DNA from: Candidatus Eiseniibacteriota bacterium
Lineage (GTDB): Bacteria; Orphanbacterota; Orphanbacteria; Orphanbacterales; Orphanbacteraceae
Assembly (NCBI GenBank): GCA_016930695.1
Contig: JAFGGD010000026.1
Coordinates: 114,904-178,903 of the forward strand
DNA: 64,000 nucleotides
Direction: 5' to 3'
The position numbers were made by a program, and so were the translations under genes. Of this stretch, positions 8,660 through 53,378 are shown one piece after another. Position 1 is the first letter of the stretch. Each line of letters opens with the position of its first letter. A model generated the notes under the pieces. It worked only from the letters and a program-made list of their open reading frames with translations, made no database searches and had not been told where the DNA came from.

Positions 8660-8663
<4 letters not shown>

Positions 8664-9115: not shown

Positions 9116-9119
9116 CCCG

Positions 9120-10673: not shown

Positions 10674-10679
10674 GATCCT

Positions 10680-11618: not shown

Positions 11619-11629
11619 GACCGCCCCCC

Positions 11630-12910: not shown

Positions 12911-13355
12911 GTAATCTCTCCCGGTCCCCGGCGGTCCCGTGGCTTCTTGTAGATCGTATGGGAGGGCGATGGCCCCGAAGGCCATTCCCCGCGAGAACGT
13001 ACCCGTCCCTTCCCGGGTCCTTGTCCCGCTCGGGCTTGTGGCGGAGCGGGGCGCAAGGACCGTCCTCGAACGAGTTATCGGCATTCCCGAGAATTTCTTG
13101 CCCGTCGGGAAACGATCTGTCTTTCCCGGGGAAACCGGGGAGCGGAGCGGCGGGGGCGGGGGAGTGGGGCGAAAAATCCGCGCGGTTCCGTGCCGTTCGT
13201 CTCGAATCGGCCGGAAAGAGCGAGAAAGAGGAAAATCTTCCCTCCGCGTGGCCGGAGGGGCGGCGTTTCGGGAGGCGTGGACCCTTCATAAGAGAAGTCT
13301 TTGTGCCGAAAAATGATATAGAGACGATTTTCGGTTCCAGCAAGGGAGGGACGGA

Positions 13356-19787: not shown

Positions 19788-22700
19788 ATGTCGCGCCGAA
19801 CCCCGCCCCGCATGCCTGCCGGTTATCGCGTGGAGAGCGTGCTCAAATCGGACGGCGAACGGGTGGTGGCGATCGCCCATCCCGCGGACGGCGGCGACAG
19901 GGTCGTATTGAAGGTGGTCGGCCCGCGCGCGGAGGAGATGGCCCGGGTCCGTTTCCATGACGTGATCCGCCTGCAGGGAGACCTCGTTCATCCCGGCATC
20001 TGCCCGATCATCAATGTCGGACGCACGCCCGACGGCGGCGTCTTCGCCGTCTATCCTTACGTGAAAACCGTCGATCCGGCGGCGTGGACGGCGGTGGATC
20101 GGAAGACCCGTTTTCCTCTCGTCGTGCGCGCCCTCTCGGAGCCGGTCGCCTTTCTCCACGAACACGGCCACGTTCACGGCGACCTCAAACCGTCGAACAT
20201 CCTGTTCCGGGCGGAGGAGGGGGAGATTCGCGATCTTCTTCTTACCGATTTTCTCCCTCCCCTCTTTTTTCGCGGGGACCGGCTCGGGACGATCGCCGGA
20301 ACATTGGGATACCTCGCCCCCGAGGCGATCCGCGGAAACGAACCGGATCACCGTTCCGATCTCTACTCGCTCGGCGCGACCCTCCACGAGATCCTCACCG
20401 GAAGCCCTCTCTTCACCGGTTCGGCGGAGGAGGTGGCTTGGGGGCATCTGTCGGCTCGGCCGCGGGTCGGCGCGCCGCGGGAGTGGAACCTTCCCGCTCG
20501 ATGGAACGAAGCATTGGAGCGTTTGCTCGCGAAGAGCCCCGCGGACCGGCCTCAGACGGCGCGGGATTTCCTGGCCGACTTCTTCGATGAAAAGCCCGGA
20601 AGCGGGCGCGTCACCGTGGTCGCCCGTCCCCCCCTGGTCGGCCGGGACTCCCTGCTCGAGGAGATGCGCGATTGGTCGAGCCTGGACGACCGCCCCTGTC
20701 TCGCCCTCCGGGGGGAGAAGGGGTGGGGGAAGACCCGCCTTCTCCGCGAATTCTCCCTTCAGCTCCGTTTGGACGGCGAGAAAGTCGCCTTCCTCTCCGT
20801 CCCGGAGGCGGTGTGCGACCGGCCTTACGAGGGGGCTCGCCTCCTCCTCGCGGCGATCTCCGCCGATCCCCTGCGGTGGGATCTGGGGCGCATCGCGTCG
20901 TCGCCGAGGCGCTCGGGGACGGCCGGGTCGAGCGGCGAACTCTCCCTCTTCCGCGCGATCTACCGGATCTGGGAAGAGAGGATCGCCGGTTTCGCGGATC
21001 GGGGAGGAAAGCCGATTCTCGTGATCGTCGACAACCTGGATCATTTCGACGACTCCTCTCTCCGTTTCTTCCGTTTCCTCCTTGATCGTGACGGTCCGCC
21101 GCCGGTCCGTTTTCTCGCCTCGATCGGATCGGTCGAATCCCCTCAGCTCTCCTCCCTTCTCGACCGTTTCGAGGAGCGAGGATTGCTCCGGACCTTAATG
21201 CTCGAGGTGCTCAGTGATTCCGACGTGGAAGAGTGGATTCGAGGCGTCCTCGGAAACGGAAAGGTCGACCCCGGGTTGACGCGGGAGGCGGTTCGTCGTT
21301 CCGGCGGCGTGCCGGCGCGGCTGGAGGGGCTGGCCAGGCGGTGGATCGCGCGCGGGCGCGTGCGGCGGAAGTACGGATCCTTCACGCTGTCCGAGACTCC
21401 GGCGCCGGGTGACGACGCGGGCGCCGGGGAGGAGAGCGCCGTCGGGCTCGATCCCGCCGGGCTTCCCCCGCGGGCGGCGCTGCTGGCCGCCGCCGTCGCC
21501 CTCTCGCCCATCGCGGGCGACGCGCCTTTCTATAGGAGGCTTCTCGGCGTTCCCGAGGAGGACTGGCCGGTGCTGGTGAACGCCCTGGTCGGGCGCGGGT
21601 GGATCCGGATCGATCCCGATCCCGCCGGCGATCGCTACTCCTTGAAAGACGAGGCGTTCCGCCCGGCGTTGGCCGGGATGATTTCGGCCGACACGCGGAC
21701 GAAGCTGCATCGCGCCGCGGCGCGGCTCCGCGCGGAGGAGGAGAAGAGGGGGGTGGAGGGAGCCTCGCTGATCGTCGCGCACCACCTGGCGGGCGCCGGA
21801 TCGTTCGCGGCGGCGAGACGGAAGCTCATGAAGGCGGCGGAGGGGATGGAACGTCTCTTTCTCTTCCGGGACGCGGCGCGGCTTTACCGGCGCGCCTCCG
21901 CCGTCGATCCCGGGAGCATCGCTCCCGGCGAGAGGGCGAAACTCCTTCTCCGGCTCGCCGAAACGCGGTTCCGGGCCGGCGAGACGCGGGGCGCCCGGGC
22001 GGCGGCGCGGCTTCTCCTCGCGTGGGGCCGCGACCGTGGGATCGATCGGTCCACGATTATCCGGGCCGGGCTTCTGGACGCCTGGATCTTCTGCAATCAA
22101 GGGAATCCCGGGCGCGCGGAGAAGAAACTCCGGGCCCTTCTGAGTCCCCCGGAGGGACTGTCACCGCGGGACCGGGCGGCGATCCTTCGCGATCTGGGGT
22201 GGGCGCTGCTCGACCAGAACCGGAAGGAGGAAGCCGGCCGGGCGCTCCGATCGGGGCTGGAGGCGCTCAAGGGAACGCGCGAGAGGGTGCTGAAAGGTCA
22301 AATCTTCAACCGTCTCGGAGCGATCGCCTATAACGGCCACGACTGGGCGCGCGCCATCACGTTTTACCGGCGGGCGGTCCGCGTCTTAGAGGGAACCGCG
22401 CCCGGCGAGGCGGTCCCCCCCTTGTCCAATCTGGCGCTCATTTATTATTGGACGGGGCGGCTTCGCGATGCGCGGGAGTCGATGGAGCGGACCCTCCGGA
22501 TCGCCCGGGAGACGGGAAACCTGATCGAGGAGGCGCGCATCTCGGAGGATCTGGCCCGCGTGTTCGCGCGTCTGGGCCGTTGGGAGGAAGCAGGTCGTCT
22601 TTTTCACGAAGCGTTCGTCACCTTCCGGGAGTACGGCGAGAGCGCTCACGAGGCGACCACGCTCCTCAGCATGGGGCACGCGGCCCGGGAGAGGGGAAGG

Positions 22701-24971
22701 CTCGTCGAGGCGCTCCGCCTCTCCGAGGACGGTCTCCGGATCGGTCGCCGGATCGTCAAGCCGATGCGGCTCGTCGACGGATTGAATCTGCTCGCGCTCT
22801 GTCACATCGCCCGGGAAGAACCGGATCGCGCGGAGGCGGTCCTCGCGGAGATCGAATCGCTCGCGCCGGGGGGATTGGGGGGGCGTCAGCTCGCCCTGAA
22901 CACGCGAACCCGGGGGAGGCTCGCCCGCCTGAGGGGAAGTTACGATGAGGCGGAAGTGCTTTTCGAGGAAGCGCTCCGCCTTTTCAAGTCGCAGAAGGCG
23001 AAACTCAACCTCGTTGAAACGCTTCTGATGATCGCGGCGTGCCGTCTGGATCGGGGAACGGGCCGCTCGCCTCTGGAGTCGCTCCGCTACGCCGAGCGCG
23101 CAATGAAACGGGAGGAGTATCCCCTGTTCGCCGTCCGGCTCCGTTTGTTGAAGGGGCGTTACGAGGAGAGCAGGGGACGGATCGCCGAGGCGGAAGCGCT
23201 CTACCGAGGGGTCGTGCGCGACGCCCGGCGGTTGGATCTCCGGATCGATCTGGCCGAGTCACTCGCACGACTGGGCGCCGTTTTCGCCGCGCAGGGGGCG
23301 AAGCGGCGGGCGAAGCGTCGTCTCGAGGAGGCGAAATCCCTTTACGACCGGATCCGTTTCGTCACTCCTCCTCCATTCCTCTCCCGTCTGCTGGCGAGCC
23401 TTCCCGGCCGGGAGGAAGCGCTCGGCGAAAGTTTTCAGACGATCTGCCGCATCTCGGAGGTGATCAATTCCCGGCGCGACGAGGAGCAGGTCCTCGCTTA
23501 TGTGTTGGATCAGGCGGTGGATTACCTTGGGGCGGAGAGGGGGCTGATTCTGCTGCGCGAGCCGGACGGTCGTCTCTTGCCGCGCAAGGCGCGTTCCCTG
23601 GAAGGAGAGAACCTGGCGGACGTGAGCCGATTCAGTCGCACCGTCTTCGGCATGGCGGAGCGATCCGAGGAGCCCTTCGTCACGGACAACGCCCTTCGAG
23701 ACGAGCGGTTCAGCGGCGCGGAGAGCGTGGCCTCCTTCAGCATTCTCTCCGTGATTTGCGCGCCCATCCGCTCCCGCGACCGGTTGATCGGAGCGATCTA
23801 CCTCGATCATCGCGAAACGGAGGGCGTCTTCTCGCCGCGCGACGTGAGGATCCTCGAAGCTCTCTCCCATCTCACCGGCATCGCGTTCGAGAACGCCCGC
23901 TACCGGCGCCTGTTGGAGAGCGAAAACGAGATGCTGCGCGAGGAGATCGACAGGCGGGAGCACGTCCACGACATCGTCACCGAGAGCCCGGTCATGAAAG
24001 GGATCCTCGACCGGCTTCGCCGGGCGGCGCGGGGGCGCATGCCGATTCTTCTCCTCGGGGAGACGGGCGTGGGGAAGAGCCTGATTGCCGGTTTCATCCA
24101 CGAAGAGAGCGACCGCCGGGACAAAGCCTTCCGCTCCCTCAACACGACGGCGATCCCGGAGACGCTCTTCGAGTCGGAGGTCTTCGGTAGCGAGCGGGGC
24201 GCCTTCTCCGGCGCGGATCAGCGCCGGATCGGGGCGTTCGAGCGGGCCGACGGGGGAACCCTCTTCCTGGACGAGATCGGCGGCATGAAAGTGGAGACCC
24301 AAAAGAAACTGCTTCGAGCCCTTCAAGACGGCACCTTCGAGAGACTGGGAGGAAGCGAAACGCTCCGGTCGGACGTCCGCCTCATCTCCGCCACCAACCA
24401 GGACCTCCAGTCGCTCATCGCCCGCGGCCTCTTTCGCAGCGATCTTCTTTACCGGATCAACGCGGAAACGGTGACGATTCCCCCTCTCCGGGAACGGCGG
24501 GAGGACATCATCCCCCTCGCGCGCGCTTTCCTGAAGAAGCACGCCCGGGAGAACCGCCGCCCGGTCCGCTCTATCTCCGACGAGGTCCTTTCCCTGTTTC
24601 TGTTCCACCATTGGCCGGGGAACGTGCGGGAGCTGGACTCCGCCATCGTGCGCGCCGTCTCCCTGTGCGACGGGGAACGGATCGAGGTGCGGGATCTGCC
24701 GGAGCACTTGAGCGCTCTCTTCCCGTCGATGGGGGCGGGTGGCTCGAGATCGAAGAAGCCGGAAGCCGATCTCGGGGCGGAGATGCGGGACATCGAGCGC
24801 GGCCGGGTTCTCGACGCGCTCCGCGGGAGCGATTGGAACAACACGGCCGCGGCGAAAAAGCTGGGCGTCCACGAATCCACGGTTCGGAAAAAGAGGAAGC
24901 AATACGGCCTCGATCGTTTCCGGCCGAAATCGTCTCCGCCGGACGACCCGTACGATCATACGAATCACTGA
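19788..24971 (+). CDS. Giant regulator: Ser/Thr protein kinase, STAND/AAA ATPase, TPR array, GAF, sigma-54 interaction AAA+ domain, Fis-type HTH
   Basis: Kinase motifs HGDLKPSNILF, DFL (DFG variant), GTLGYLAPE. Walker A GEKGWGKT. Long TPR-like helical region. GAF domain. Sigma-54 activator Walker A GETGVGKS, GAFSGA (GAFTGA variant), GGTLFLDEIG and R-finger region. C-terminal HTH AAKKLGVHESTVRKK. Confidence 0.85.
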   Translation: MSRRTPPRMPAGYRVESVLKSDGERVVAIAHPADGGDRVVLKVVGPRAEEMARVRFHDVIRLQGDLVHPGICPIINVGRTPDGGVFAVYPYVKTVDPAAWTAVDRKTRFPLVVRALSEPVAFLHEHGHVHGDLKPSNILFRAEEGEIRDLLLTDFLPPLFFRGDRLGTIAGTLGYLAPEAIRGNEPDHRSDLYSLGATLHEILTGSPLFTGSAEEVAWGHLSARPRVGAPREWNLPARWNEALERLLAKSPADRPQTARDFLADFFDEKPGSGRVTVVARPPLVGRDSLLEEMRDWSSLDDRPCLALRGEKGWGKTRLLREFSLQLRLDGEKVAFLSVPEAVCDRPYEGARLLLAAISADPLRWDLGRIASSPRRSGTAGSSGELSLFRAIYRIWEERIAGFADRGGKPILVIVDNLDHFDDSSLRFFRFLLDRDGPPPVRFLASIGSVESPQLSSLLDRFEERGLLRTLMLEVLSDSDVEEWIRGVLGNGKVDPGLTREAVRRSGGVPARLEGLARRWIARGRVRRKYGSFTLSETPAPGDDAGAGEESAVGLDPAGLPPRAALLAAAVALSPIAGDAPFYRRLLGVPEEDWPVLVNALVGRGWIRIDPDPAGDRYSLKDEAFRPALAGMISADTRTKLHRAAARLRAEEEKRGVEGASLIVAHHLAGAGSFAAARRKLMKAAEGMERLFLFRDAARLYRRASAVDPGSIAPGERAKLLLRLAETRFRAGETRGARAAARLLLAWGRDRGIDRSTIIRAGLLDAWIFCNQGNPGRAEKKLRALLSPPEGLSPRDRAAILRDLGWALLDQNRKEEAGRALRSGLEALKGTRERVLKGQIFNRLGAIAYNGHDWARAITFYRRAVRVLEGTAPGEAVPPLSNLALIYYWTGRLRDARESMERTLRIARETGNLIEEARISEDLARVFARLGRWEEAGRLFHEAFVTFREYGESAHEATTLLSMGHAARERGRLVEALRLSEDGLRIGRRIVKPMRLVDGLNLLALCHIAREEPDRAEAVLAEIESLAPGGLGGRQLALNTRTRGRLARLRGSYDEAEVLFEEALRLFKSQKAKLNLVETLLMIAACRLDRGTGRSPLESLRYAERAMKREEYPLFAVRLRLLKGRYEESRGRIAEAEALYRGVVRDARRLDLRIDLAESLARLGAVFAAQGAKRRAKRRLEEAKSLYDRIRFVTPPPFLSRLLASLPGREEALGESFQTICRISEVINSRRDEEQVLAYVLDQAVDYLGAERGLILLREPDGRLLPRKARSLEGENLADVSRFSRTVFGMAERSEEPFVTDNALRDERFSGAESVASFSILSVICAPIRSRDRLIGAIYLDHRETEGVFSPRDVRILEALSHLTGIAFENARYRRLLESENEMLREEIDRREHVHDIVTESPVMKGILDRLRRAARGRMPILLLGETGVGKSLIAGFIHEESDRRDKAFRSLNTTAIPETLFESEVFGSERGAFSGADQRRIGAFERADGGTLFLDEIGGMKVETQKKLLRALQDGTFERLGGSETLRSDVRLISATNQDLQSLIARGLFRSDLLYRINAETVTIPPLRERREDIIPLARAFLKKHARENRRPVRSISDEVLSLFLFHHWPGNVRELDSAIVRAVSLCDGERIEVRDLPEHLSALFPSMGAGGSRSKKPEADLGAEMRDIERGRVLDALRGSDWNNTAAAKKLGVHESTVRKKRKQYGLDRFRPKSSPPDDPYDHTNH

Positions 24972-35813: not shown

Positions 35814-35905
35814 CCGCGCCCGCCGTTCGCCCCTAAAGAGAATCCCCGGAGGCGCCGCCCCCGGGGATTCCTCTTTTTCGCCGTCGCCCAAGCGGGCGGG
35901 CCGGC

Positions 35906-37090
35906 CTAGAAGCCGGTGACCATGCCGATCACCCCCCGGTCCGTCTCCCGCTCCAGGTCCCGGGTGTACTCCGCGAGGAAGCGCAGATTGCGCGCAAAGA
36001 GATAGGTGACGCCCGCCGTGGCGGTCTCGTAATCGTAATCGTCCAGATCCGAATCGATCCGGTTGTAGAGCCCGGTGAAGAAGAAACGGGAGCGGTCCTC
36101 TTGGGGCGAGACGACCACCTCCACCACGATTCCCTCGGTCTCCACGTCTTCCGGGGAATCGATGAAAGTGGGATTGGTGTCTTTCCGGAGGAGGTACTGG
36201 ACGGTCGCTCCCACCGGCCCGTATCCCCCGTTCGCGTCCGGGCCCCAATAGGTGATCTCGTTCTCCTCGCCGCCCACGGTCCGTTCCTTGCCGTAGTAAA
36301 TAAAGCCGCCCACGGAGGCGTACTCGCCGATCCCCTGGGCGAGACGGAAGCCGTAGTTCTTGAATTTGTCGTTGTCGAACTTCAGGTTCTCGTCCGCCTC
36401 CGGCTTGCCGTTACCGTTCACCACCATGCCGACCAGGTCGGTGCCGGTCCGCTCGATGCCGTAGAGAAGCATCACCCCCCGGTCGTAGGCGAGATTGTTC
36501 ATCGAGTCGCCGATCCGGGTCTTGTAGATCTGGTAATCTTCGAAGGTGAGCCGCAGCTCGCGCTTCATCAGAGGATCCGAGGTCTGGAACTGGCCGACCA
36601 GCACGTCGAGGGGGACGCCGAAGACGTCGTTGAAGTGGACGTAGGCGTCCTCGATGCCCGCCACCTCCCCCCGCTCGGACATGTAGAAGTAGAAGTAGTA
36701 TCCGATGTTCCGGTAGAGCGCCCCGCCGGACATCAGCTTGATTCCCCAGGGGGACTGCAGGTCGTACTCCACGTCGCCATCTTCTAACGCGTCCTCGTAC
36801 ACGCCGTAGGCGTCGAAGCGGATCGCGACGGGGAAGTCTTTGTTCAGCCAGAGAAGGTCGTCGCCCGCGGTGATATAGTCGCGCTCCTTCTCCTCCTCGG
36901 GGATCATGAATCCGTTGCCGGCGAATTCGTCGCCGTACGGCTTCAGCTTGGGGAAGGGAACGTGGCAGGTGGAGCAGGAGAGCTTGTGCCGCCGCGCGAA
37001 CGCGGGGATCGCGCCTGCTTCTTCGGGGAGGACGGCGGCGAGAACCGTCGCCGCCAGTGCCGCGCACCACACAATCTTCGATCGATTCAT
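35906..37090 (-). CDS. Putative Cyc2-like fused monoheme cytochrome c / outer-membrane beta-barrel
   Basis: Start at MNRSK. Signal peptide. A single CxxCH (CSTCH) about 20 aa after the cleavage site. The remaining roughly 350 aa are rich in alternating aromatic/Gly/Asp residues typical of a beta-barrel and end in ...MVTGF. Lies 50 bp downstream of a multiheme cytochrome gene. Confidence 0.5.
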   Translation of the reverse strand: MNRSKIVWCAALAATVLAAVLPEEAGAIPAFARRHKLSCSTCHVPFPKLKPYGDEFAGNGFMIPEEEKERDYITAGDDLLWLNKDFPVAIRFDAYGVYEDALEDGDVEYDLQSPWGIKLMSGGALYRNIGYYFYFYMSERGEVAGIEDAYVHFNDVFGVPLDVLVGQFQTSDPLMKRELRLTFEDYQIYKTRIGDSMNNLAYDRGVMLLYGIERTGTDLVGMVVNGNGKPEADENLKFDNDKFKNYGFRLAQGIGEYASVGGFIYYGKERTVGGEENEITYWGPDANGGYGPVGATVQYLLRKDTNPTFIDSPEDVETEGIVVEVVVSPQEDRSRFFFTGLYNRIDSDLDDYDYETATAGVTYLFARNLRFLAEYTRDLERETDRGVIGMVTGF

Positions 37091-37142
37091 TCTTTCCGTA
37101 CCTCCCTCTCCGCGCCGCGCGCGCCTCACCGCGCCGCGCGGT

Positions 37143-38489
37143 TCAGTCGTACACTTCGATCCACGTCTCGGCGTGATTGATCGGAACGACCGCGCTCTCG
37201 TCGGCCGGAACATTCAACAGGTCCGCCACCGGCTTCACCAGTTTTTGAAAGTTCAACTCCGCGTGGAATGTCACCCGGCCGGGGGAGAGGTCCTCGGGAA
37301 TTTCCCAGGTGAAGGTCTCGATCTTGGTTTCCCGCGGGCCGATCCGGTAGTCGACGCCGAAGCTCTTCGTGTTCCACTGCATGATGGTCATCCGGCCTTG
37401 GGGATCGAAGTAGGGCATCCGGAAGATCCGGTCGCCGAACGGAACGCCGTCGCGCTGCACGCCGGGGAAGTCCGGATCGTCCAGCGGAACAGCCATGTCC
37501 TGATAGGCGAGCACGTCGGCGGCGATCGTGTACTCCTCTCCGCTGAAACCTTTCGGATCCACGGGAAGGTGCCACGTCCGTCCTTCCTCGTCTTCGGCGG
37601 TCACGTGGAGCCATACGATGCGGTCCTCCACCGAGCCGGTCGGGATCTTGTGGCCCGCCTTCCCGTTGAAGAGCTGCACCTTCACGACAGCGATCCCGTC
37701 GTAGGGGACCTCGCGTTCTTCGGGGTGCATCCGGAGTTCCACGGCGCCGGCCACCTTTCCGGGGTCGTGAGCGCCGTGGAAGAGGTGTTGCGCCACCGAG
37801 TCCGCCTCGACCATGGAGGCGCTCTTCCCCCAGGCGCGCGGCTCGTGACAGCGCTGGCAGGGAACCCCGTCGGCGCCGTAAGGACCGGCGGCCCACTCGA
37901 TCTGGGTCGCCTTCACCCACGCGCCGTAGGGGCTCATCTCGTTGTGACAGGTCCCGCAGAACTCCGCCTGCCGGAGGAAGGGGTTGTACTCCGTGTCGTG
38001 ATGGGGGGAGACGCGCCCCGGTTTGGGGCCGTACTTGGTGCGCCCCGGCGTCGAAATCCAATTGAAGTTAAAAGGGGTGTCGCCGGCGTAGCCGCTCACC
38101 GTGTGGCAGACGTCGCAGCTCACCGATTCGTTGGCGCGGCTGTTCTTCTCCGGGCGCGGCGGAGGGGTGTCCCCCGCCAGATAGGCGATCGGCGTGTGAC
38201 AGCCGTTGCACCCCGGTTCCGCCTTCGCCGCGATCGGGTCCCTCTTGGCGTGCTCCACCGCCAGGCCGAAATACTCGATCTCGTCCCAGTGATGGGTGAA
38301 TGCCTGGGCCATCATCGACTGCTCCCACTGCCGGAAGAGATCGGTGTGACAGCTGCGGCAAGCGGCCGGCTTCTCGTAATCGTCGTAACTCTTGGTGTTG
38401 TAGGCTTCTTCGCCGGAAGGACCGCCCCCCGCAGCGAAGGCGACGTGGGCGGCGAGGAGAAGAACCGGGAGGAGGGTGAAACGTTTCAT
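37143..38489 (-). CDS. Secreted pentaheme c-type cytochrome
   Basis: Start at MKRF (AAGGAGG SD). Signal peptide. Five CxxCH motifs (CRSCH, CNGCH, CDVCH, CGTCH, CQRCH). Confidence 0.8.
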   Translation of the reverse strand: MKRFTLLPVLLLAAHVAFAAGGGPSGEEAYNTKSYDDYEKPAACRSCHTDLFRQWEQSMMAQAFTHHWDEIEYFGLAVEHAKRDPIAAKAEPGCNGCHTPIAYLAGDTPPPRPEKNSRANESVSCDVCHTVSGYAGDTPFNFNWISTPGRTKYGPKPGRVSPHHDTEYNPFLRQAEFCGTCHNEMSPYGAWVKATQIEWAAGPYGADGVPCQRCHEPRAWGKSASMVEADSVAQHLFHGAHDPGKVAGAVELRMHPEEREVPYDGIAVVKVQLFNGKAGHKIPTGSVEDRIVWLHVTAEDEEGRTWHLPVDPKGFSGEEYTIAADVLAYQDMAVPLDDPDFPGVQRDGVPFGDRIFRMPYFDPQGRMTIMQWNTKSFGVDYRIGPRETKIETFTWEIPEDLSPGRVTFHAELNFQKLVKPVADLLNVPADESAVVPINHAETWIEVYD

Positions 38490-38690: not shown

Positions 38691-38708
38691 CAATACGAGG
38701 TGACCGGA

Positions 38709-39185
38709 ATGCCACGACCGATGCGAAGAAAAATCATCTCTCACGGAATCGACCGGCGCGCTTTCAAGCCGGTCGGCGTTCCCCGCACCGGGCTCGAAAC
38801 CGTCTACCTCACCCTCGACGGGCTGGAGGCGATCCGCCTGGCCGACGGCGAGGGTCTTTACCAAGAAGCCGCGGCGGAGAGAATGGACGTTTCGCGCACC
38901 ACATTTTCGCGGATTCTCGCGGCCGCGCGGCGCGCCGTGGCGGAAGCGCTTCTTGAAGGAAAAGCCCTCGAGATACGCGGCGGAGTCGTGGACCGCTCCC
39001 CCGCGGGACCCCATCCATGCCCGGTGCATGGAGGGGTGAGACGGACGGGGCGGGGTTGCCGTTGCGGTCCCAGAGACGGACACGGGCGGGGCATGAGGGC
39101 GGACGGAGAAAGCGAGCAATCTATGGACGAGAAACATCCCGGCGGGGACGACAAAGCCCGGCCGGACGAGGAGGAAAGTCGATGA
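38709..39185 (+). CDS. DUF134 (UPF0251) putative DNA-binding protein
   Basis: Family-typical N-terminus MPRPMRRKI and FKPVGVP, with a sigma-70-region-4-like HTH. The upstream part of the long ORF in this frame is junk. Stop overlaps the next start (ATGA). Confidence 0.6.
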   Translation: MPRPMRRKIISHGIDRRAFKPVGVPRTGLETVYLTLDGLEAIRLADGEGLYQEAAAERMDVSRTTFSRILAAARRAVAEALLEGKALEIRGGVVDRSPAGPHPCPVHGGVRRTGRGCRCGPRDGHGRGMRADGESEQSMDEKHPGGDDKARPDEEESR

Positions 39186-39766
39186 AAATCGCAATCACGG
39201 CGATGGGCGACGGATTGGACGCCGAGGTCAGCCCCGTTTTCGGGCGGGCCCCCTATTTTCTTTATGTGGACGTCGAAAGCGGCGAGGTGGAGGCATTGGT
39301 GAATCCTTCGGTGGACGCGCCGGGAGGGGCCGGAATCCGTTCCGCCCAGATCGTCGCGGACTCGGGGGTGGGCGCGGTCGTGACCGGACGACTCGGCCCG
39401 AACGCCTCACGTGTTCTTCAGGAGACCGGGTTGGACCTTTTCCGCGCGCGTGCCGGCACGGTCCGGGAGAATCTGGACGCTTTCCGCGGCGGGACGCTCG
39501 AACGTCTCGATGACGTGGGGGAGGCGGGGTTCGGGGGGAAACCGGGCGCGATGGGCGGCGGTCGTGGCGGCGGCATGGGCGGCGGCGGCGGGAGCGGAAT
39601 GGGGAGTGGTCGTGGTGGCGGCATGGGTGGTGGCGGTGGCATGGGCGGTGGTCGAGGCGGTGGTGGCGGTATGGGGGGCGGCCGTGGCGGCGGCGGCGGT
39701 CGTGGCGGCGGCGGTGGTGGTGGCGGCGGTGGTGGCCGTGGTGGTGGTGGCGGCGGCGGGCGCTGA
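39182..39766 (+). CDS. NifX/NifB-like dinitrogenase FeMo-cofactor-domain protein with an approximately 80-aa Gly/Arg/Met-rich low-complexity tail
   Basis: The first roughly 110 aa (MKIAITAMGDGLDAEVSPVFGRAPYFLYVDVESGEV...) match the NifX/NafY fold family. The tail consists of GGRGGGMGGGG repeats. Confidence 0.7.
   Translation: MKIAITAMGDGLDAEVSPVFGRAPYFLYVDVESGEVEALVNPSVDAPGGAGIRSAQIVADSGVGAVVTGRLGPNASRVLQETGLDLFRARAGTVRENLDAFRGGTLERLDDVGEAGFGGKPGAMGGGRGGGMGGGGGSGMGSGRGGGMGGGGGMGGGRGGGGGMGGGRGGGGGRGGGGGGGGGGGRGGGGGGGR
39535..39763 (+). repeat. Imperfect GGC/GGT tandem-repeat tract encoding (G3-5 R/M)n
   Basis: Read directly: repeated ggcggtggtcgtggcggcggcatgggcggc units over about 230 bp. 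Confidence 0.7.
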
Positions 39767-39783
39767 TTCATCGGAGGGACTGT

Positions 39784-40653
39784 GTGATGATCCTTGCCGT
39801 GGCAAGTGGAAAAGGGGGAACCGGGAAAACGACCGTCGCGATCGGTTTGGCGCGGGCCGCGGCGGCGGAGGGCCGCACCGTGCTTTTCCTGGACTGCGAT
39901 GTGGAGGCGCCGAACGCGGCGCTCTTCCTCCATCCGGAGTGGGAGGAGGAAAGGCGGGTCGGCGTCCTCCTGCCCGAGGTGGACCCGGAGAAGTGCACGG
40001 GCTGCGGGCGCTGCGCCGAGGTGTGCGCCTATTCCGCCCTCGCCGTGGTGAACGGGAAGGTGCTCCTTTTCGACGATCTCTGCCACGGCTGCGGGAGCTG
40101 CATGCGGCAGTGTCCCGAGAAGGCGATCACCGAACGGCTCCATACAACCGGAAGCCTCCATGCGGGCCGGGCCGGCGCGATTCTCTTCGCCCGGGGCGTG
40201 CTCGACGTGGGGCGAGCCATGGCGCCGCCCGTGATCCGCGAACTGAAACGATGGAAGCTCGGGGGCGCGGGCGGGCCGGGACGCCTGGCGGTGCTCGACG
40301 CGCCTCCGGGCGCGTCCTGTCCGGTGGTGGAAACTCTCCGGGGCGCCGACCGCGTTCTTCTCGTCACCGAACCGACCCCCTTCGGCCTGCACGACCTGGA
40401 GCAGGCGATCGGCCTCGCCCGGGACGCCCTCGGGCTCCCCGTCGATGTCGTTCTGAACCGCGCCGACGAGGGAGATGACGCCGTGGAGCGTTTTTGCGAG
40501 AAAGAGGGGATCCCCGTGGTGCTCCGCATACCCTTCGACAGGAAGATCGCCGAGGCGTATTCGGAAGGAATCGCGCCGGACCACGCGGTGCCGGAGGTCG
40601 GGCGCGCCTTTCGGGATCTCCTGCTCGTGCTCGCCGGGAGGGAGGGAGGATGA
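39784..40653 (+). CDS. MinD/ParA-superfamily P-loop ATPase with inserted 2x[4Fe-4S] ferredoxin domain (CooC-like)
   Basis: Deviant Walker A GKGGTGKTT. Two Fe-S cysteine clusters, CTGCGRCAEVC and CHGCGSCMRQCP. Confidence 0.8.
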   Translation: MMILAVASGKGGTGKTTVAIGLARAAAAEGRTVLFLDCDVEAPNAALFLHPEWEEERRVGVLLPEVDPEKCTGCGRCAEVCAYSALAVVNGKVLLFDDLCHGCGSCMRQCPEKAITERLHTTGSLHAGRAGAILFARGVLDVGRAMAPPVIRELKRWKLGGAGGPGRLAVLDAPPGASCPVVETLRGADRVLLVTEPTPFGLHDLEQAIGLARDALGLPVDVVLNRADEGDDAVERFCEKEGIPVVLRIPFDRKIAEAYSEGIAPDHAVPEVGRAFRDLLLVLAGREGG

Positions 40654-41561
40654 TGAAGCAACTGGTCGTGCTGAGCGGCAAGGGGGGCACGGGGAAGACA
40701 TCGGTCGCCGCCGCGCTCGCGGTGCTCGCCTCGCGTGAGAGGAAGATCGTCCTCGCCGACGCGGACGTGGACGCCGCCAATCTCGCCATCCTTCTCGACC
40801 CGATCGAGGAGGAGCGTGTCGACTTCGTTTCGCCCGAAACCGCGGCGATCGATCCGGAGCGGTGCGTCGCCTGCGGCCTCTGCGCCGAGGCGTGCCGCTT
40901 CGACGCGATCCCGGTCGAGGATTCCGTCTACCGGGTCGATCCACTCGGATGCGAGGGGTGCCGCGCCTGCCTCTGGGTCTGTCCCGAGGACGCGATCCGC
41001 ATGGAGCGCGAACCGGCCGGCTTTCGACTCCGTTCGCGCACCCCCTACGGCCTTCTTCACCACGCCCACCTCTTTCCCGGCGCGGAGAATTCGGGAAAAC
41101 TGGTGAGCGAGGTGCGGCGCGAGGCGCGGCGGAGCGCCTTGGACGGAGGCGCGGACTTCATTCTGATCGACGGGCCGCCCGGCATCGGCTGTCCGGTGAT
41201 CGCGGCGAGCACCGGCGTCGATCTCGCTCTTCTCGTCGCCGAGCCGACCGTCTCGGCGATCCACGACCTGGCGCGCGTGCGCGGCGCCGCGGAACACTTC
41301 GATGTTCCCTGCGCGATCGTCGTCAACAAGTGGGATCTGAATCCGGGGAAGACCGCCGAGATCGAGCGCTTCGCCGCGCGCGACGGCTTGGAGATCTGGG
41401 GAAGGATTCCCTACGACCGGGAGGTGCCGCGCACGCTCGTGATGCGCCGTCCGATCACCGAGTGTCCCGCCGAGGGTGTGCGGAAGGCGATCGCGGAAAT
41501 CTGGGAAGCGGCGCGCCGCGCCATGGATGACGCCGGCGATCCCTTTCCGACGCGCGGCTAA
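40650..41561 (+). CDS. Second MinD/ParA-superfamily ATPase with inserted 4Fe-4S ferredoxin domain
   Basis: GKGGTGKTS. CVACGLCAEAC and CEGCRACLWVCP. ATGA overlap with the upstream paralogue. Confidence 0.8.
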   Translation: MMKQLVVLSGKGGTGKTSVAAALAVLASRERKIVLADADVDAANLAILLDPIEEERVDFVSPETAAIDPERCVACGLCAEACRFDAIPVEDSVYRVDPLGCEGCRACLWVCPEDAIRMEREPAGFRLRSRTPYGLLHHAHLFPGAENSGKLVSEVRREARRSALDGGADFILIDGPPGIGCPVIAASTGVDLALLVAEPTVSAIHDLARVRGAAEHFDVPCAIVVNKWDLNPGKTAEIERFAARDGLEIWGRIPYDREVPRTLVMRRPITECPAEGVRKAIAEIWEAARRAMDDAGDPFPTRG

Positions 41562-48141: not shown

Positions 48142-50217
48142 TTGGGCATGAAAGAGTATCGACGAATCACGCGCGCGGCCGCGTTCATCGCGGCGTTCGC
48201 CGCGCTCGTTCTGTTCGCCGGTTGCGGGACCGACGACGAGGAACTGCTCCCCCGCGACTCCGAAGCGCCACTCTTCATCAACGAGATCCTCGCGGACAAC
48301 GGCGCCGTCGCCGTCGATCCCGACTTCGGCGAGCACTCCGACTGGATCGAGCTGTACAACGCCGGCGCCGCGGCGCTCGACCTGGAGGGTTTCTCCCTCA
48401 CCGACGATCCGTCGAGCGTTTCGCCCTGGACATTTCCGGAAGGATCGACGATCCCCGCCGGCGGTTTCCTACTCGTCTGGGCGGACGACCGGGACACCAC
48501 CGCCGCCGCCCATCACACCGACTTCAAGCTGAGCGCCTCCGGCGAGTCGGTCGTTCTCCGCGACGCGGACGGTCTCACCGCGGACCGGCTCGATTTCGGC
48601 GAGCAGGAGGAAGACATCTCCTGGGGGCGGGTCGCCGACGGCGGCGCGGACTGGGCCGCCTTCGCTTCTCCCACGCCGGGTGTGTCCAACACCGGTTCGG
48701 GGAACGCCGCTCCGGTGATCGTATCGGTCCGGCTCGACCCGTCCACGCCCGGCCCGAACGACACGGTGCGCGTCGTCGCCGTGGTGACCGACGACGATTC
48801 CGCCGCCGTGACGCTCGTCTGGTCCCCCGGCGGCGGAATGATGGAAGCCGCCATGGAGGCTGAGGCGCCGGACACATTCGCCGCGTCGATCCCCCCCTTC
48901 CCCGAGGGATCCACCATCACCTATTGGGTGTCCGCCGAGGACACCGCCGGCGTGGAGGTCCGTTCTCCCGCCAACGCCCCCTCCGAGTCCTACGCCTACA
49001 CGGTCGGGAGCGCCTTCCCCCTCGTTTTCATCAACGAGTTCCTGGCGAGCAACAGCGTCACCGGCGCCGACCCCGACTCCAACGAATACGGCGACTGGAT
49101 CGAGTTGTATAACGGCGGCGCGACCGACGTGGACCTCGCCGGGTGGTTCCTCTCCGACAACCCGAGCGAGCCGCTCCGCTGGACCTTCCCGGAGGGCTCG
49201 ATCGTCGAAGCGGGCGGCTTCTTCCTTCTCTGGGCGGACGGGTACGACTTCGTCGGCCTCGCGGTCCACGCCGATTTCAAGCTCAGTAAGGACGGCGACG
49301 AGGTGATCCTCCTCAGCGACCGGTCCGGGGCGCGGATCGATTCGACGGCGATTGAGCCGCAGACCGTCGATGTGTCGACGGGGCGCGTCACGGACGGCGG
49401 CGCCGCGTGGACCACCTTCACCCTCCCCACGCCGGACGCATCGAACTCCGGCGTCGGCGGGAACACGCCCCCCGCGTTCCTCTCCGCCTCCCTCGCCCCC
49501 GACCCGCCCGCCGCCGGCGAAGCCCCGACGGTGACGGCGGTGATCGTCGACTCCGACGGCGTGGACACCGCCACGGTGCGAGTCGACGTCGGAGCGGGGT
49601 GGACCGAGATTCCCCTGGTACGCGCCGCCGGCGACACCTTCACCGCCGCGCTTCCGGCACGAACGGGAGGGACGCCCGTCGCCTGGTATCTCTACGCCGC
49701 CGACCCGCTCGGCGCCGCTTCCTACGATCCACCCGCCGGGCCGCTCGCCCCGCGCCTGTACACCGTCCCCGGCTCGGCGCCTTCGGTCCTGATCAACGAG
49801 TTCCTCGCCGGGAACGAGACGGGCGCCGCCGATCCGGACTCGGGCGAGACCGGGGACTGGATCGAGCTGTACAACGCGGAAAATTCACCCATCGACCTTT
49901 CCGGCTGGACCATCACGGATGACCCGGAAGCGGAGCCGGCGGAGCGATGGACCTTTCCGCCGGGCGCCTCCATCGCCGCCAAGGACCGGCTCCTTCTCTG
50001 GGCGGACGGCGAGGATTTCGCCGGGATCGCGCTCCACGCCGATTTCAAGCTGAACCGCGGCGGCGAGTCGATCCTCCTCTTCGACGACGCGGGGGACCGC
50101 GCCGACGGAATCACCTTCGGTCCGCAGACGTTGGACGTCTCCTACGGGAGAACGCCCGACGGCGGTTCCGCCTGGACCTTCTTCGCGACCCCCACGCCGG
50201 GCGCGGCCAACCCCTGA
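48142..50217 (+). CDS. Lipoprotein with three lamin-tail-domain (LTD) repeats separated by Ig-like segments
   Basis: Signal peptide with lipobox LFAGCG. Three repeats of LFINEILADN...DWIELYN...GW.L.D...W.FP; HTDFKLS also recurs. Confidence 0.7.
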   Translation: MGMKEYRRITRAAAFIAAFAALVLFAGCGTDDEELLPRDSEAPLFINEILADNGAVAVDPDFGEHSDWIELYNAGAAALDLEGFSLTDDPSSVSPWTFPEGSTIPAGGFLLVWADDRDTTAAAHHTDFKLSASGESVVLRDADGLTADRLDFGEQEEDISWGRVADGGADWAAFASPTPGVSNTGSGNAAPVIVSVRLDPSTPGPNDTVRVVAVVTDDDSAAVTLVWSPGGGMMEAAMEAEAPDTFAASIPPFPEGSTITYWVSAEDTAGVEVRSPANAPSESYAYTVGSAFPLVFINEFLASNSVTGADPDSNEYGDWIELYNGGATDVDLAGWFLSDNPSEPLRWTFPEGSIVEAGGFFLLWADGYDFVGLAVHADFKLSKDGDEVILLSDRSGARIDSTAIEPQTVDVSTGRVTDGGAAWTTFTLPTPDASNSGVGGNTPPAFLSASLAPDPPAAGEAPTVTAVIVDSDGVDTATVRVDVGAGWTEIPLVRAAGDTFTAALPARTGGTPVAWYLYAADPLGAASYDPPAGPLAPRLYTVPGSAPSVLINEFLAGNETGAADPDSGETGDWIELYNAENSPIDLSGWTITDDPEAEPAERWTFPPGASIAAKDRLLLWADGEDFAGIALHADFKLNRGGESILLFDDAGDRADGITFGPQTLDVSYGRTPDGGSAWTFFATPTPGAANP

Positions 50218-50241
50218 GAGGGGCGGCGGGCGGAGGGAACG

Positions 50242-51150
50242 ATGGGGCGGATCGCGGCGATCGACCTGGGCACCAACTCGATGAAGCTTCTCGTCGCCGA
50301 CGCCGGCGACGGGGAGATCGAGACGGTGATCGATCGTTTCCGCGTCACCCGGCTCGGCGAGGGGATGGGGGAGCGCCCCCTTCTCCGTGACGGCGCGGTG
50401 GAGAGGAATCTGGAATCTCTCCGCCTCTTCGCCGACGAGGCGAGGGAGGCGGGGGCGCGGCGGATCGTCGCCGCCGGCACCGAGGCGCTCCGCGCCGCCC
50501 GGAACGCCCCGGACTTTTTGGCGCGCGCCGAGCGGGAGTGCGGCGTCGCCGTGGAGATCCTCACCGGAGAGGAGGAGGCTCGCCTCTCCTGGATCGCCGC
50601 ACTCTCCGCCTTCGATCCCATCGAGGGCCCGGTCCTTCTCTTCGATACGGGAGGGGGGAGCACCGAGTTCGTTTTCGGCCGAGGGGGCGCGATCGCGTCG
50701 CGCGCGAGCCTCCCCCTCGGATCGCGCGTTCTCGCCGAAGCGTTTCTCCGGTCGGATCCACCCGGGCCGGAGGAACGGACACGGCTGGACCACCGTCTCG
50801 CCTTCGCCCTCGATGAGCTGGAGGGAGAGGCGGCTCGGGTGATCGGCGTGGGCGGCACCGTCACCACACTCGCCGCCGTCTTCCTCGGCGTGGAGCCGTA
50901 CGACCCGGCCCGCGTCGGCGGCGCGTCGCTCCCCCTCGCCGAGGTGGAGCGCCAGATCACCCTCTACGCTTCCCTCCCCGGCGAGCGGCGGCGGGAGATC
51001 CCCGGTCTCCATCCGGACCGCGCGGATGTGATCCTCGCGGGCGCCGCGCTCGTCCGGGCCGTGCTCCGCCGCTTCGGCGCTCCCTCTCTTCTCGTCAGCG
51101 ATCGGGGCCTCCGCCACGGCCTTCTGATCGACCGTTTCCTCCGCGATTGA
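50242..51150 (+). CDS. Ppx/GppA phosphatase family protein (N-terminal actin-like ATPase domain only)
   Basis: AAIDLGTNSMKLLVAD and ASKKH-fold motifs. 302 aa. Confidence 0.8.
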   Translation: MGRIAAIDLGTNSMKLLVADAGDGEIETVIDRFRVTRLGEGMGERPLLRDGAVERNLESLRLFADEAREAGARRIVAAGTEALRAARNAPDFLARAERECGVAVEILTGEEEARLSWIAALSAFDPIEGPVLLFDTGGGSTEFVFGRGGAIASRASLPLGSRVLAEAFLRSDPPGPEERTRLDHRLAFALDELEGEAARVIGVGGTVTTLAAVFLGVEPYDPARVGGASLPLAEVERQITLYASLPGERRREIPGLHPDRADVILAGAALVRAVLRRFGAPSLLVSDRGLRHGLLIDRFLRD

Positions 51151-51275
51151 GAGGCGACACGGGCCGCGCGCGGGAGGCGATTTCGCGGGCCGGGCTTGCG
51201 CCATCGCTCTTTTGGGAGGAAAGTAAGGGGAGAGCACCCACCGGCTCGGGACGATCGGAATCACGGAAAAGGAAA

Positions 51276-53378
51276 ATGCGCTCTTTCTCGAGCTTCGCCG
51301 TCCGTTTCCGGGACACGACCACGCGTTTTCGTCTCGGCGCGGCGCTTGCGGCCGCGGCTCTCCTCGCGCTCTTTGCCGCCGGCGCGGGCGCACAGATCGT
51401 CCTCAACGAGATCATGTACAACACGCCCGACTCGCCCGACGTGGAGTGGGTGGAACTGGTGAACGTCTCCGCCGCCGCCGTCGATCTCGATGGCTGGTAC
51501 CTTCTCGACGAAGACGACGGCCACGTTCCCTGCGCGCTCGCCGGCGTTCTCGATCCGGGGGCTTTTCTGGTCGTCGCCGGCGACGACACCCTCTTCGCCG
51601 CCGCCTACCCGGACGTGGAGAACGTGAACCCGAACGTCTTCGGCATGGGACCGGACGGATGGAACCTGGGGAACGGCGGCGACGCGATCCGTCTCTACGA
51701 CGACGACGACGAACTCGCCGACCGCGTGGACTTCGACGACGCCTCCCCCTGGCCGACCGCGCCGGACGGCGACGGTCCCTCGCTGGAGCTGCTGAACCCC
51801 GCCCTCGACAACGCCTCCGCCGTGAGCTGGGCGGCGAGCATCGCCGCCGGCGGGAGCCCGGGAGCGCCGAACACGGTTTACGTGAACGACCAACCGCCGG
51901 CGGTGGGCGCCCTCTCCCGCGACATCCTTCTCCCCGGACCCGCCGACACGGTGACGGTGACCGCCCGCGCTTTCGATGACGACTCCCTCGCGGCCGTGCT
52001 TCTTTACATGGACGACGGGAGCGGCTTCACGCCGGCGCCGATGGCCGACGACGGCCTGCACGGCGACGGCGCCCCGGGCGATTCCCTCTTCGGCGTCCGT
52101 CTCGCCCCGCGTCCCTTCGGCGCGTTGGTCCGCTACTATGTCCTCGCCGAGGACGGCATCAGCCAAACCGCGACCGATCCACCGGACGCCCCGGCCGCCT
52201 ACCATGCCTACACCGTGGGATACGAGCCTCCCATGCTCACGATTTCCGAGGCGCTCGCCGTGAACGATTCCGGCGCCGCCGACGAGATGGGCGAGCGCGA
52301 GGACTGGATCGAGATCCGCAACGGCGGACCGTCGCCGGCCGCGCTCGGCGGAATGTTCCTCACGGACGACTTCGACTCGCCGATGAAATGGGCGCTCCCG
52401 GACACGACGATCCCGGCGGGCGACCATCTGCTCGTCTGGGCCGACGGAGAGCCGGAAGAGGGGCCTCTTCACGCGGACTTCAAGCTCTCCGCCGGCGGTG
52501 AGGAGGTGGGGCTTTTCGAGACGACCGATCACGGGAACGGGCGAATCCACGGATTCACCTTCGGCCCGCAGAGCGCGGATATCTCCTTCGGTTATCTGCC
52601 GGGGGACAACGCGCCCGAGTACCTCGATCCTCCCACGCCGGGCGCGTCCAACGCATCCTCGTCCCCCTACGGCGAAGTCTGCGTCAACGAACTCTTCGCC
52701 GCCTCCACCGCGTCGGGCGGCGAGGACTGGTTGGAGTTGTGGAACCGCGGAGGCGCCGCGGTCGGTCTGGGCGGTTGGTTCCTCTCCGACGATACGAACG
52801 AGCCGGAACGATACCGCATCGCCGACGGGACCTCACTCCCCGCGGGCGCTTTTCTCGTTTTCACCGAAAGCGAACTCGGCTTCGCCTTTTCCGCATCCGG
52901 CGACGAGGCGGTCCTTCTCACGGCGCCGGACGGCGCGACCGGGGTGGACTACTACGACTACGGCCCGCAGATCGCCGGCGCGTCGGTGGGACGCTGGCCC
53001 GATGGAACCGGTTTCTGGAGCGTGATGGAATCCCCCACGCCGGGCGCGCCCAACGGAGACCCGGTCGGGGTGGACGAATCGGCGGCGGCGGCTCCCCCCG
53101 CGGCGGCGCGGATCGCCGCCAACCGGCCGAATCCCTTCAACCCGACGACGACCATCCTCTTCGAGACCTTGAAAAGAGGACGCGCGCGGATCCGCGTCTA
53201 CGACCTCGGCGGGCGGCGTGTCCGCTCTCTCGTGGACGCCTCTCTCGAACCCGGATCGCACGAGGCGCGGTGGGACGGCCGAAACGACGCGGGGCGGCCG
53301 GTGGCCGGCGGATTCTACTTCGCCCGCCTCGAGACGGAAGGTTCCTCGTGCGCGGTGAAGATGCTTCTTCTCCGATGA
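51276..53378 (+). CDS. Secreted protein with three LTD repeats and a C-terminal FlgD-Ig / T9SS-type sorting domain
   Basis: Start at MRSF. Signal peptide. IVLNEIMYNTP...EWVELVN...GWYLLDED repeats. C-terminal approximately 80 aa (RPNPFNPTTTILFE...VYDLGGRRVRSL...GFYFARLE) match the C-terminal sorting/FlgD-Ig-like domain pattern. Confidence 0.7.
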   Translation: MRSFSSFAVRFRDTTTRFRLGAALAAAALLALFAAGAGAQIVLNEIMYNTPDSPDVEWVELVNVSAAAVDLDGWYLLDEDDGHVPCALAGVLDPGAFLVVAGDDTLFAAAYPDVENVNPNVFGMGPDGWNLGNGGDAIRLYDDDDELADRVDFDDASPWPTAPDGDGPSLELLNPALDNASAVSWAASIAAGGSPGAPNTVYVNDQPPAVGALSRDILLPGPADTVTVTARAFDDDSLAAVLLYMDDGSGFTPAPMADDGLHGDGAPGDSLFGVRLAPRPFGALVRYYVLAEDGISQTATDPPDAPAAYHAYTVGYEPPMLTISEALAVNDSGAADEMGEREDWIEIRNGGPSPAALGGMFLTDDFDSPMKWALPDTTIPAGDHLLVWADGEPEEGPLHADFKLSAGGEEVGLFETTDHGNGRIHGFTFGPQSADISFGYLPGDNAPEYLDPPTPGASNASSSPYGEVCVNELFAASTASGGEDWLELWNRGGAAVGLGGWFLSDDTNEPERYRIADGTSLPAGAFLVFTESELGFAFSASGDEAVLLTAPDGATGVDYYDYGPQIAGASVGRWPDGTGFWSVMESPTPGAPNGDPVGVDESAAAAPPAAARIAANRPNPFNPTTTILFETLKRGRARIRVYDLGGRRVRSLVDASLEPGSHEARWDGRNDAGRPVAGGFYFARLETEGSSCAVKMLLLR

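Follow-up and report, generated by a model that had tools for sequence, protein, structure and literature searches.

Within the 64,000-nucleotide (nt) stretch of DNA that we analysed as a whole (the window; contig JAFGGD010000026.1 of Candidatus Eiseniibacteriota bacterium), two tandem open reading frames (ORFs) on the minus strand, gene A and, downstream of it, gene B, form one module, a conclusion strongly supported by the adjacency of their orthologues in 82 of 82 related loci. Judged by sequence, gene A belongs to the PHC family of pentaheme cytochromes, which includes Thermochromatium tepidum c552 and ExtKL, and gene B is a member of the Cyc2 superfamily from a divergent clade, with Cyc2-like architecture, for which strict membership fails on the published motif. 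Whether the pair serves as a conduit across the outer membrane that oxidises dissolved Fe(II), a protective variant of this role included, is in our judgement about evenly balanced. An earlier note on this DNA had described a pentaheme cytochrome followed by a monoheme porin and had treated the two genes as one module; both ORFs, their heme counts and their architecture were confirmed and their unity strongly supported, while the spacing, given there as 53 bp, was measured at 52 nt. The window was annotated with our own ORF calls and Pfam, and the elements of the pair are the following:

37143–38489, minus strand: gene A, a pentaheme c-type cytochrome of 448 amino acids (aa)
38346–38360, minus strand: gene A heme motif 1, CRSCH, residues 44–48, from sequence, invariant in the alignment
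38196–38210, minus strand: gene A heme motif 2, CNGCH, residues 94–98, from sequence, invariant in the alignment
38103–38117, minus strand: gene A heme motif 3, CDVCH, residues 125–129, from sequence, invariant in the alignment
37944–37958, minus strand: gene A heme motif 4, CGTCH, residues 178–182, from sequence, invariant in the alignment
37845–37859, minus strand: gene A heme motif 5, CQRCH, residues 211–215, from sequence, invariant in the alignment
37146–37757, minus strand: gene A C-terminal non-heme beta-sandwich region, residues ~245–448, from conservation, model strands and the alignment to 5ze8
37091–37142, minus strand: intergenic spacer of 52 nt, holding the GGAGG ribosome-binding site of gene B
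35906–37090, minus strand: gene B, a Cyc2-like fused monoheme cytochrome-porin of 394 aa
37010–37090, minus strand: gene B signal peptide, residues 1–27, with predicted cleavage between AGA and IP, from inspection by eye
36986–37012, minus strand: Cyc2-type motif A-I-P-A-F-A-R-R-H of gene B, residues 27–35, three residues before the heme motif
36962–36976, minus strand: gene B heme-binding motif CSTCH, residues 39–43, followed by VPF-PKL, in 75/75 orthologues
35909–36829, minus strand: gene B 16-strand beta-barrel porin domain, residues 88–394, from barrel prediction and fold matches
35835–35876, minus strand: putative intrinsic terminator hairpin 3' of gene B, from folding energy

The pairing of the two genes was followed through a family scan that took one genome per species and yielded 212 genomes with the family, the best 80 of which were examined. 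These 80 are all uncultured metagenome-assembled genomes (MAGs), either of the FCB group or unclassified. Where a phylum is given, it is KSB1, Calditrichota, Krumholzibacteriota, Latescibacterota, Eisenbacteria, Zhuqueibacterota or, once, Gemmatimonadetes; a few are assigned to Cytophagia or Fibrobacteraceae, and for many the label says no more than 'bacterium'. In every one of the 82 loci with room upstream of gene B, an orthologue of gene A (62–76% identical) lay directly upstream on the same strand, at a distance of −1 to about 280 nt; one further locus, which ends 72 bp upstream of gene B, was left out of this count. Both proteins are unusually conserved, at about 60–70% identity across phyla, and their pairwise identities correlate (r = 0.72). 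For gene B, identity was 0.64 within phylum labels versus 0.59 between them, and for gene A the corresponding values were 0.72 and 0.675. No third gene was universal across the related loci. We found no description of a Cyc2–pentaheme operon in the searchable literature. Cyc2-like fused cytochrome-porins are already known, as are calls of them in these phyla (PMC9769843, PMC7914226); what appears to be new is the unbroken pairing with a c552/ExtK-type pentaheme cytochrome, the spread of the family over 212 species-level genomes, the position of the clade off the published motif, and a level of conservation unusual for an outer-membrane protein.

Transcription signals around the pair agree with such a unit. 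A terminator scan of the spacer detected no terminator between gene A and gene B, which suggests that the two are co-transcribed. Gene A starts with MKRFTLL, with AGGAGG 6 nt upstream and a start position shared by its homologues, and gene B with MNRSKIV, likewise preceded by a GGAGG. Directly after the stop codon of gene B lies a hairpin followed by UCUCUUU, with a folding energy of −48.5 kcal/mol for the 71-nt stretch (z = −4.4) and none of 200 shuffled sequences equally stable; the consensus terminator scan did not pick up this hairpin, because its U-tract is weak.

Gene B begins with a signal peptide of n-h-c layout (MNRSK, a hydrophobic core, then the cleavage site, all by eye), runs through IPAFARRHKLS-CSTCH-VPFPKL into a stretch with many alternating aromatic and polar residues, and ends in …GMVTGF. 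The CSTCH starts 12 residues into the mature protein, outside the signal peptide, and exactly one CxxCH was present in each of the 75 orthologues. In an alignment of 28 sequences with a mean column identity of 66%, C39, C42 and H43 were invariant, A27 and P29 were conserved, and further long blocks were invariant or nearly so, among them GYYFYFY.SERGEVAGIEDAY.HF, GQFQTSDPLMKRELRLTFEDY and VNGNG, the second of which (residues ~166–186) forms a long L3-like loop of the predicted barrel. The C-terminal residue is Phe, as it is in 69/75 orthologues. Prediction gave a barrel of 16 strands, whose best fold matches were general 16-strand porins, anion- and phosphate-selective, including OprP. The signal peptide, the single CxxCH near the mature N-terminus, the beta-barrel and the C-terminal aromatic residue that the earlier note had read from the sequence were thus all recovered; of the findings that it had named as fatal to its reading, a CxxCH within the signal peptide was ruled out by the predicted (by-eye) cleavage site and an origin from porins lacking the cysteines by the homologues of gene B, all of which keep them.

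The likeness to Cyc2 was judged against the published signature of that protein, which comprises a signal peptide, a single CXXCH, the motif AXPXFAR[Q/K][T/Y] just upstream of it, PXL at position +4 and a 16-strand OprO/OprP-like porin (PMC8406198). The upstream motif was described as unique to Cyc2, and the data set of Keffer et al. 2021 was filtered on it together with a length of at least 365 aa (PMC8406198). Gene B has the N-terminal signal peptide (by inspection), the single CXXCH near the mature N-terminus, PXL at +4 (CSTCH-VPF-PKL, in 75/75 orthologues), a predicted 16-strand OprO/OprP-like barrel and, at 394 aa, sufficient length. It also has the AXPXFAR core and the three-residue spacing to CxxCH, but departs from the full motif in carrying R for Q/K and H for T/Y. 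Among the 75 members of its own clade, the motif reads FARRY in 50, FARKY in 7, FARRH in 6, FARTH in 5 and FARQY in 3, so that the canonical FARKY or FARQY occurs in 10 of them and the clade, by sequence, straddles the published definition of Cyc2. The published motif filter would therefore have removed sequences like gene B and kept most members of the clade out of the published Cyc2 tree.

Relationship beyond the motif was evident from profile comparisons. An exhaustive profile search with gene B returned 2,647 clusters at E < 1e-3, the remoter full-length members of which carry the canonical FARKY or FARQY, and hhalign aligned gene B with a canonical FARQY clade at a probability of 100% (E = 6e-52) over 358 columns, so the homology is full-length and extends beyond the heme motif. 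The earlier note's assignment of gene B to a Cyc2-like architecture accordingly stands for the AxPxFAR core, the PxL, the length, the OprP-like fold and the homology to the FARQY clade, and falls short for the strict [Q/K][T/Y] motif. Three MAGs for which cyc2-like genes have been listed, Dive96_bin2.115, bin1.135 and bin3.88 (PMC9769843), are all among the loci of the gene B family (L068, L058 and L076, respectively), although that list comes from machine-read, visibly unreliable figure text from which nothing else was used. Most such cyc2-like sequences were placed with the Leptospirillum/Tenderia cluster (PMC9769843), the one that is least certain in function (Keffer et al. 2021, PMC8406198).

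General databases had little to say about gene B. Pfam and NCBIfam gave no family at E ≤ 1, and a sequence search of the PDB gave no meaningful match; the same protein, annotated as 'hypothetical protein', is present in a Candidatus Eisenbacteria MAG, and of the more than 2,900 homologues of gene B the closest 120, at 60–71% identity, are nearly all unnamed. Four remoter relatives were checked, from a Pseudomonadota MAG, a marine metagenome contig (other copies of this protein carry the label Nitrospinota), a Gemmatimonadales MAG and a further lineage. In all four the gene stands alone, with no cytochrome gene beside it, and pentaheme pairing was for this reason rejected as a general feature of Cyc2. 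A tblastn search of plasmids with a canonical-motif relative matched the N-terminal motif only, in Methylocystis and Caballeronia. A homologue search with P0222 found no cultured, named iron oxidiser and returned instead a conserved sister clade (the P0222 family; L084 6001–7290, L085 6001–7275), which is Cyc2-like, has the canonical FARQY and stands alone, with no cytochrome partner; relatives of the same query at 60–66% identity are labelled Gallionellaceae, Chromatiales, Burkholderiales, Thiobacillaceae or Nitrospinota.

Gene A carries a type I signal peptide (…AHVAFA, cleaved before AGGG) with no lipobox Cys and is, as its sequence indicates, secreted and probably periplasmic and soluble. 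All five of its CxxCH motifs (residues 44–48, 94–98, 125–129, 178–182 and 211–215) were invariant in 25 aligned homologues, and five were counted in each of 66 orthologues from species-level genomes. The family matches that of gene B in size and is even more highly conserved, with a mean column identity of 73%; the non-heme C-terminal half, with the motifs GHKIPTGSVEDR and QRDGVP.GDRIFRMPYFDPQGRMT, is very well conserved, and many further His residues are invariant, enough for six-coordination of all five hemes. The protein contains exactly ten Cys, all of them within the CxxCH motifs, and its gene has no in-frame TGA; where some orthologues have further Cys, these are not conserved. Gene A shows neither a CxxCK nor any other heme motif known to be catalytic.

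Assignment of gene A to the PHC family took account of the five CxxCH motifs, the C-terminal beta domain and homology to a solved member, all of which were found. Searches with Pfam gave generic multiheme families only, and the match to the NCBIfam model for ExtKL (NF040886) was partial, at 57.5 bits, and did not reach the cut-off of 250. The alignment profile of gene A matched one solved structure, PDB 5ze8 (E = 1.2e-11), in two stretches, the heme region and a C-terminal region with H-x-x-P-T-G. The AlphaFold2 model was poor, with a predicted local distance difference test (pLDDT) score of 49, save for the C-terminal beta-sandwich, where strands at residues 250–300 and 388–447 were confident. 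Foldseek with this poor model returned generic Ig-like matches only and did not recover 5ze8, so the link between gene A and c552 derives from the sequence profile. The c552 protein, cable bacteria's pentaheme cytochromes and Geobacter ExtKL form one pentaheme family (PMC11976967). ExtKL has been renamed MccSep and reported to be a periplasmic polysulfide reductase whose active site combines a heme ligated by Cys (C239) with a selenocysteine (U325) (bioRxiv 10.1101/2025.11.18.688581); an MccSep-type sulfur reductase was rejected as an identity for gene A, in which the catalytic Cys and the selenocysteine are absent. In a Krumholzibacteria MAG, FeGenie called an 'OmcS' and a 'Cyc2', both highly abundant (PMC7914226), and that 'OmcS' may be an orthologue of gene A.

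Comparison with known systems places the pair between several of them. With the characterised Cyc2 proteins (Acidithiobacillus ferrooxidans Cyc2, Mariprofundus Cyc2PV-1 and Leptospirillum Cyt572), gene B shares the signal peptide, a length of ~400 aa, one CxxCH near the mature N-terminus, AxPxFAR three residues before it, PxL at +4 and a predicted 16-strand OprP-like barrel. It differs in reading FAR-R-H (FAR-R-Y in most of its clade) instead of the FAR[Q/K][T/Y] of Cyc2; in being 60–70% identical across phyla over the whole protein, whereas Cyc2 porins are poorly conserved; in belonging to a clade always preceded by a pentaheme cytochrome gene; in lacking rus, cyc1 or cox neighbours; and in its hosts, uncultured FCB-group heterotrophs instead of known iron oxidisers. 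Gene A resembles T. tepidum c552 (5ze8) in size (448 versus 435 aa) and in the order of its parts, five CxxCH and then a C-terminal beta domain that contains H-x-x-P-T-G; sequence identity is low, and we know of no porin association of c552. With Geobacter sulfurreducens ExtKL (MccSep) it shares the pentaheme fold family, the periplasmic location and a gene position beside an outer-membrane beta-barrel gene. MccSep, however, is a polysulfide reductase with a Cys-ligated heme and a selenocysteine, neither of which gene A has; together with the score below the NF040886 cut-off, the absence of C239/U325 features sets gene A apart as no equivalog of ExtKL/MccSep. The Geobacter barrel ExtI, unlike gene B, carries no heme, and its cluster adds ExtH and ExtJ. 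The concept of a co-encoded outer-membrane barrel and periplasmic multiheme cytochrome for trans-outer-membrane electron transfer is shared with MtrAB, MtoAB and PioAB, whose barrels, of about 26 strands, form a sheath around a decaheme protein; gene B, with 16 strands, is not a barrel of this large sheathing type, is too narrow for gene A and has a heme of its own.

Taken together, these features suggest how the operon might lead electrons across the outer membrane by way of two components. Gene B would consist of a ~60-residue monoheme c-type segment fused to a 16-strand OprP-like porin, and by analogy with Cyc2 its heme would sit in the pore, or at or under it. Gene A, being too large for the lumen of a 16-strand barrel, would dock at the periplasmic face and relay electrons between the pore heme and periplasmic or inner-membrane redox partners; it is most likely a wire or dock rather than an enzyme, because the Cys/selenocysteine catalytic site of MccSep is missing. 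Dissolved Fe(II) would enter the pore and be oxidised at the heme of gene B, from where electrons would pass to the pentaheme gene A and then to oxidases or peroxidases. In heterotrophs of micro-oxic sediments, such a path could provide protection against iron and oxygen or supplementary energy. This scheme is what we infer from the features above, as regards heme attachment and contact of the two proteins as much as the substrate and the direction in which electrons flow.

Oxidation of Fe(II) is favoured as the direction because every Cyc2-family protein tested biochemically is an Fe(II) oxidase (PMC8406198), because only soluble species are within reach of a lone heme inside a narrow 16-strand pore, and because iron-storage and oxygen-defence genes recur near the pair. 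Several observations weigh against it. Among the known relatives of gene A, c552 is low-potential and MccSep reductive, which fits an outward flow equally well or better. Cyc2 porin domains are usually poorly conserved, at 17–50% identity between taxa, and the far higher conservation of the gene B clade may reflect a different or more specific job. The hosts are apparently organoheterotrophs, none of them a known iron oxidiser (PMC9769843), and genes for an oxidase, cyc1, rusticyanin or cytochrome maturation are absent from the 64-kb window. The model of gene A is poor (pLDDT 49), and the N-terminal heme segment of gene B was modelled at low confidence. Gene B lacks the strict Cyc2 motif and was set beside Cyc2 by way of published motif criteria and canonical-motif relatives. 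Finally, 22 of the 82 loci have, no more than 6 kb from the pair, at least one of desulfoferrodoxin, Fe/Mn superoxide dismutase (SOD), BCP/AhpC, ferritin or a flavodiiron-type protein, a count that comes from related, non-independent lineages with no background rate to compare; a link between these recurrent neighbours and the role of the pair is suggestive.

A narrower version of this conduit, which we hold tentatively and as rather unlikely, is that of a clade-specific system, made up of a Cyc2-type porin-cytochrome and a c552/ExtK-type partner, that serves mainly in defence and not in energy metabolism. If true, Fe(II) oxidation or the reduction of oxygen or peroxide at the outer membrane would limit Fenton chemistry in anaerobic to micro-oxic FCB-group heterotrophs, and this would account both for the extreme conservation and for the recurrent superoxide reductase, SOD, peroxiredoxin, flavodiiron and ferritin neighbours.

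The main competitor of Fe(II) oxidation is a flow in the opposite direction, from metabolism through a low-potential gene A to the pore heme and on to soluble extracellular acceptors, for instance humic quinones, Fe(III) in chelated form or, at the cell surface, oxygen and peroxide. We regard this as possible, if somewhat on the unlikely side. The low-potential or reductive character of the relatives of gene A speaks for it, and the oxygen-defence neighbours would also fit the reduction of oxygen or reactive oxygen species at the surface. In 2018, Jimenez Otero and colleagues reportedly proposed that Geobacter ExtHIJKL, which combines a PHC protein with an outer-membrane barrel, acts as a reduction conduit, and we counted this on the same side. 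The hosts are sediment heterotrophs that would gain from an electron sink (PMC9769843), and a reactor fed with Fe(III) under oxygen limitation enriched a Krumholzibacteria MAG with a 'Cyc2' (PMC7914226). At the same time, no protein of the Cyc2 family has been shown to be a reductase (PMC8406198), one heme buried in a 16-strand pore cannot contact insoluble minerals, and no outer-surface multiheme cytochrome is consistently found nearby, with only a small monoheme protein sorted by the type IX secretion system (T9SS) in 7 of the 82 loci.

It is also conceivable, albeit improbable in our view, that gene B is mainly a substrate porin for a small anion or a sulfur or nitrogen species, in which the heme senses or gates, and that gene A is a periplasmic multiheme enzyme which converts this substrate, much as polysulfide is reduced by ExtKL/MccSep. 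The anion- and phosphate-selective porins among the best fold matches would suit such a role for gene B; the conservation of the whole of gene A, non-heme domain included, is at an enzyme-like level; and MccSep, which has the same fold, is an enzyme whose substrate entry across the outer membrane is unexplained. This explanation becomes less likely because gene A has none of the known catalytic heme signatures: with no Cys outside CxxCH and no in-frame TGA it lacks the Cys-ligated heme and the selenocysteine of MccSep, no CxxCK or similar motif exists, and the invariant His are numerous enough for each of the five hemes to be six-coordinate. Gene B, moreover, has a heme motif that is invariant and of the Cyc2 type. 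That gene B is no more than a common porin whose CxxCH arose by chance and which lies by accident beside a cytochrome gene has a negligible probability: it belongs to no Pfam or NCBIfam family and its fold resembles ordinary porins, but the CxxCH and its flanking motifs are invariant in 75/75 orthologues, the adjacency holds in 82/82 loci, and conservation over more than 2,900 homologues excludes chance.

On one side of the pair in the window lie a 2-thiouracil desulfurase/DUF1722 gene, a photolyase, an OmpA-type lipoprotein and an OPT transporter. The feature beside gene A is:

38700–41561, plus strand: divergent cluster of DUF134 (a putative regulator), a NifX-like Nitro_FeMo-Co protein and two MinD/CbiA-type ATPases with 4Fe-4S motifs, from Pfam

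A similar DUF134/NifX-like/MinD cluster is found near the pair in five related loci (L003, L013, L015, L045 and L046), four of which also have a PadR gene there. The NifX-like protein of the window ends in a low-complexity tail (39500–39766, plus strand) of ~90 residues, almost all Gly, Arg and Met (GGGRGGGMGGGGG…), and the opposite strand of this tail reads as a Pro/Thr/Ala-rich ORF.

Examples of the oxygen-defence and iron-storage neighbours occur in L002, L005, L007, L012, L014, L020, L021, L032, L033 and L050, and the Fe/Mn-SOD found near the pair in related loci has a Tat-like leader. A nitroreductase lies near the pair in 10/82 loci. None of these oxygen-defence, iron-storage or nitroreductase genes is present in the window itself. 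The T9SS-sorted protein of the seven loci is ~265 aa long, with one CxxCH near the N-terminus and a C-terminal sorting domain (L017 4369–5163, with similar genes in L020, L021, L026, L033, L036 and L074), and is by its sequence a candidate cell-surface cytochrome.

Further away in the window, positions 6747–13084 (minus strand) encode the small subunit of a [NiFe] hydrogenase (with no Tat leader), its large subunit and a maturation protease, with a hybrid histidine kinase/response regulator and a Cache/PAS sensor protein encoded on the flanks of this cluster; the hydrogenase lies at 9–11.6 kb, and the whole looks like a hydrogen-sensing (group 2b-like) module, not an energy-conserving enzyme. 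A 2-oxoacid:ferredoxin oxidoreductase is encoded at 59.7–61.1 kb. The earlier note had brought both the hydrogenase and the ferredoxin-dependent oxidoreductase into its account of the pair; both exist in the window, at a distance of more than 20 kb from the pair and with no link to it. Other large genes on the plus strand are a 1,727-aa fusion of Ser/Thr kinase, AAA ATPase, TPR, GAF and a sigma-54 activator with HTH_8 (19788–24971) and two large lamin-tail-domain proteins with a Ppx/GppA phosphatase gene between them (48142–53378); the end of the second lamin-tail protein resembles the C-terminal sorting part of the T9SS-sorted neighbour proteins.

These findings bear on the way in which Cyc2 homologues are read. 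Metagenome surveys use them as markers of iron oxidation, including in heterotrophic candidate phyla in which iron oxidation has not been shown. The copies found in Eisenbacteria, KSB1, Calditrichota, Krumholzibacteriota and Latescibacterota all fall into a single tight clade with a pentaheme partner and unusual constraint; given this obligate partner and the constraint on its sequence, the clade may be a functionally distinct system, and its presence would not automatically signify an 'iron oxidiser'. Gene A is in turn a candidate periplasmic partner for a Cyc2-type protein, of a kind that is poorly defined beyond acidophiles, and the compact two-gene cassette is well suited to heterologous expression and structural work.

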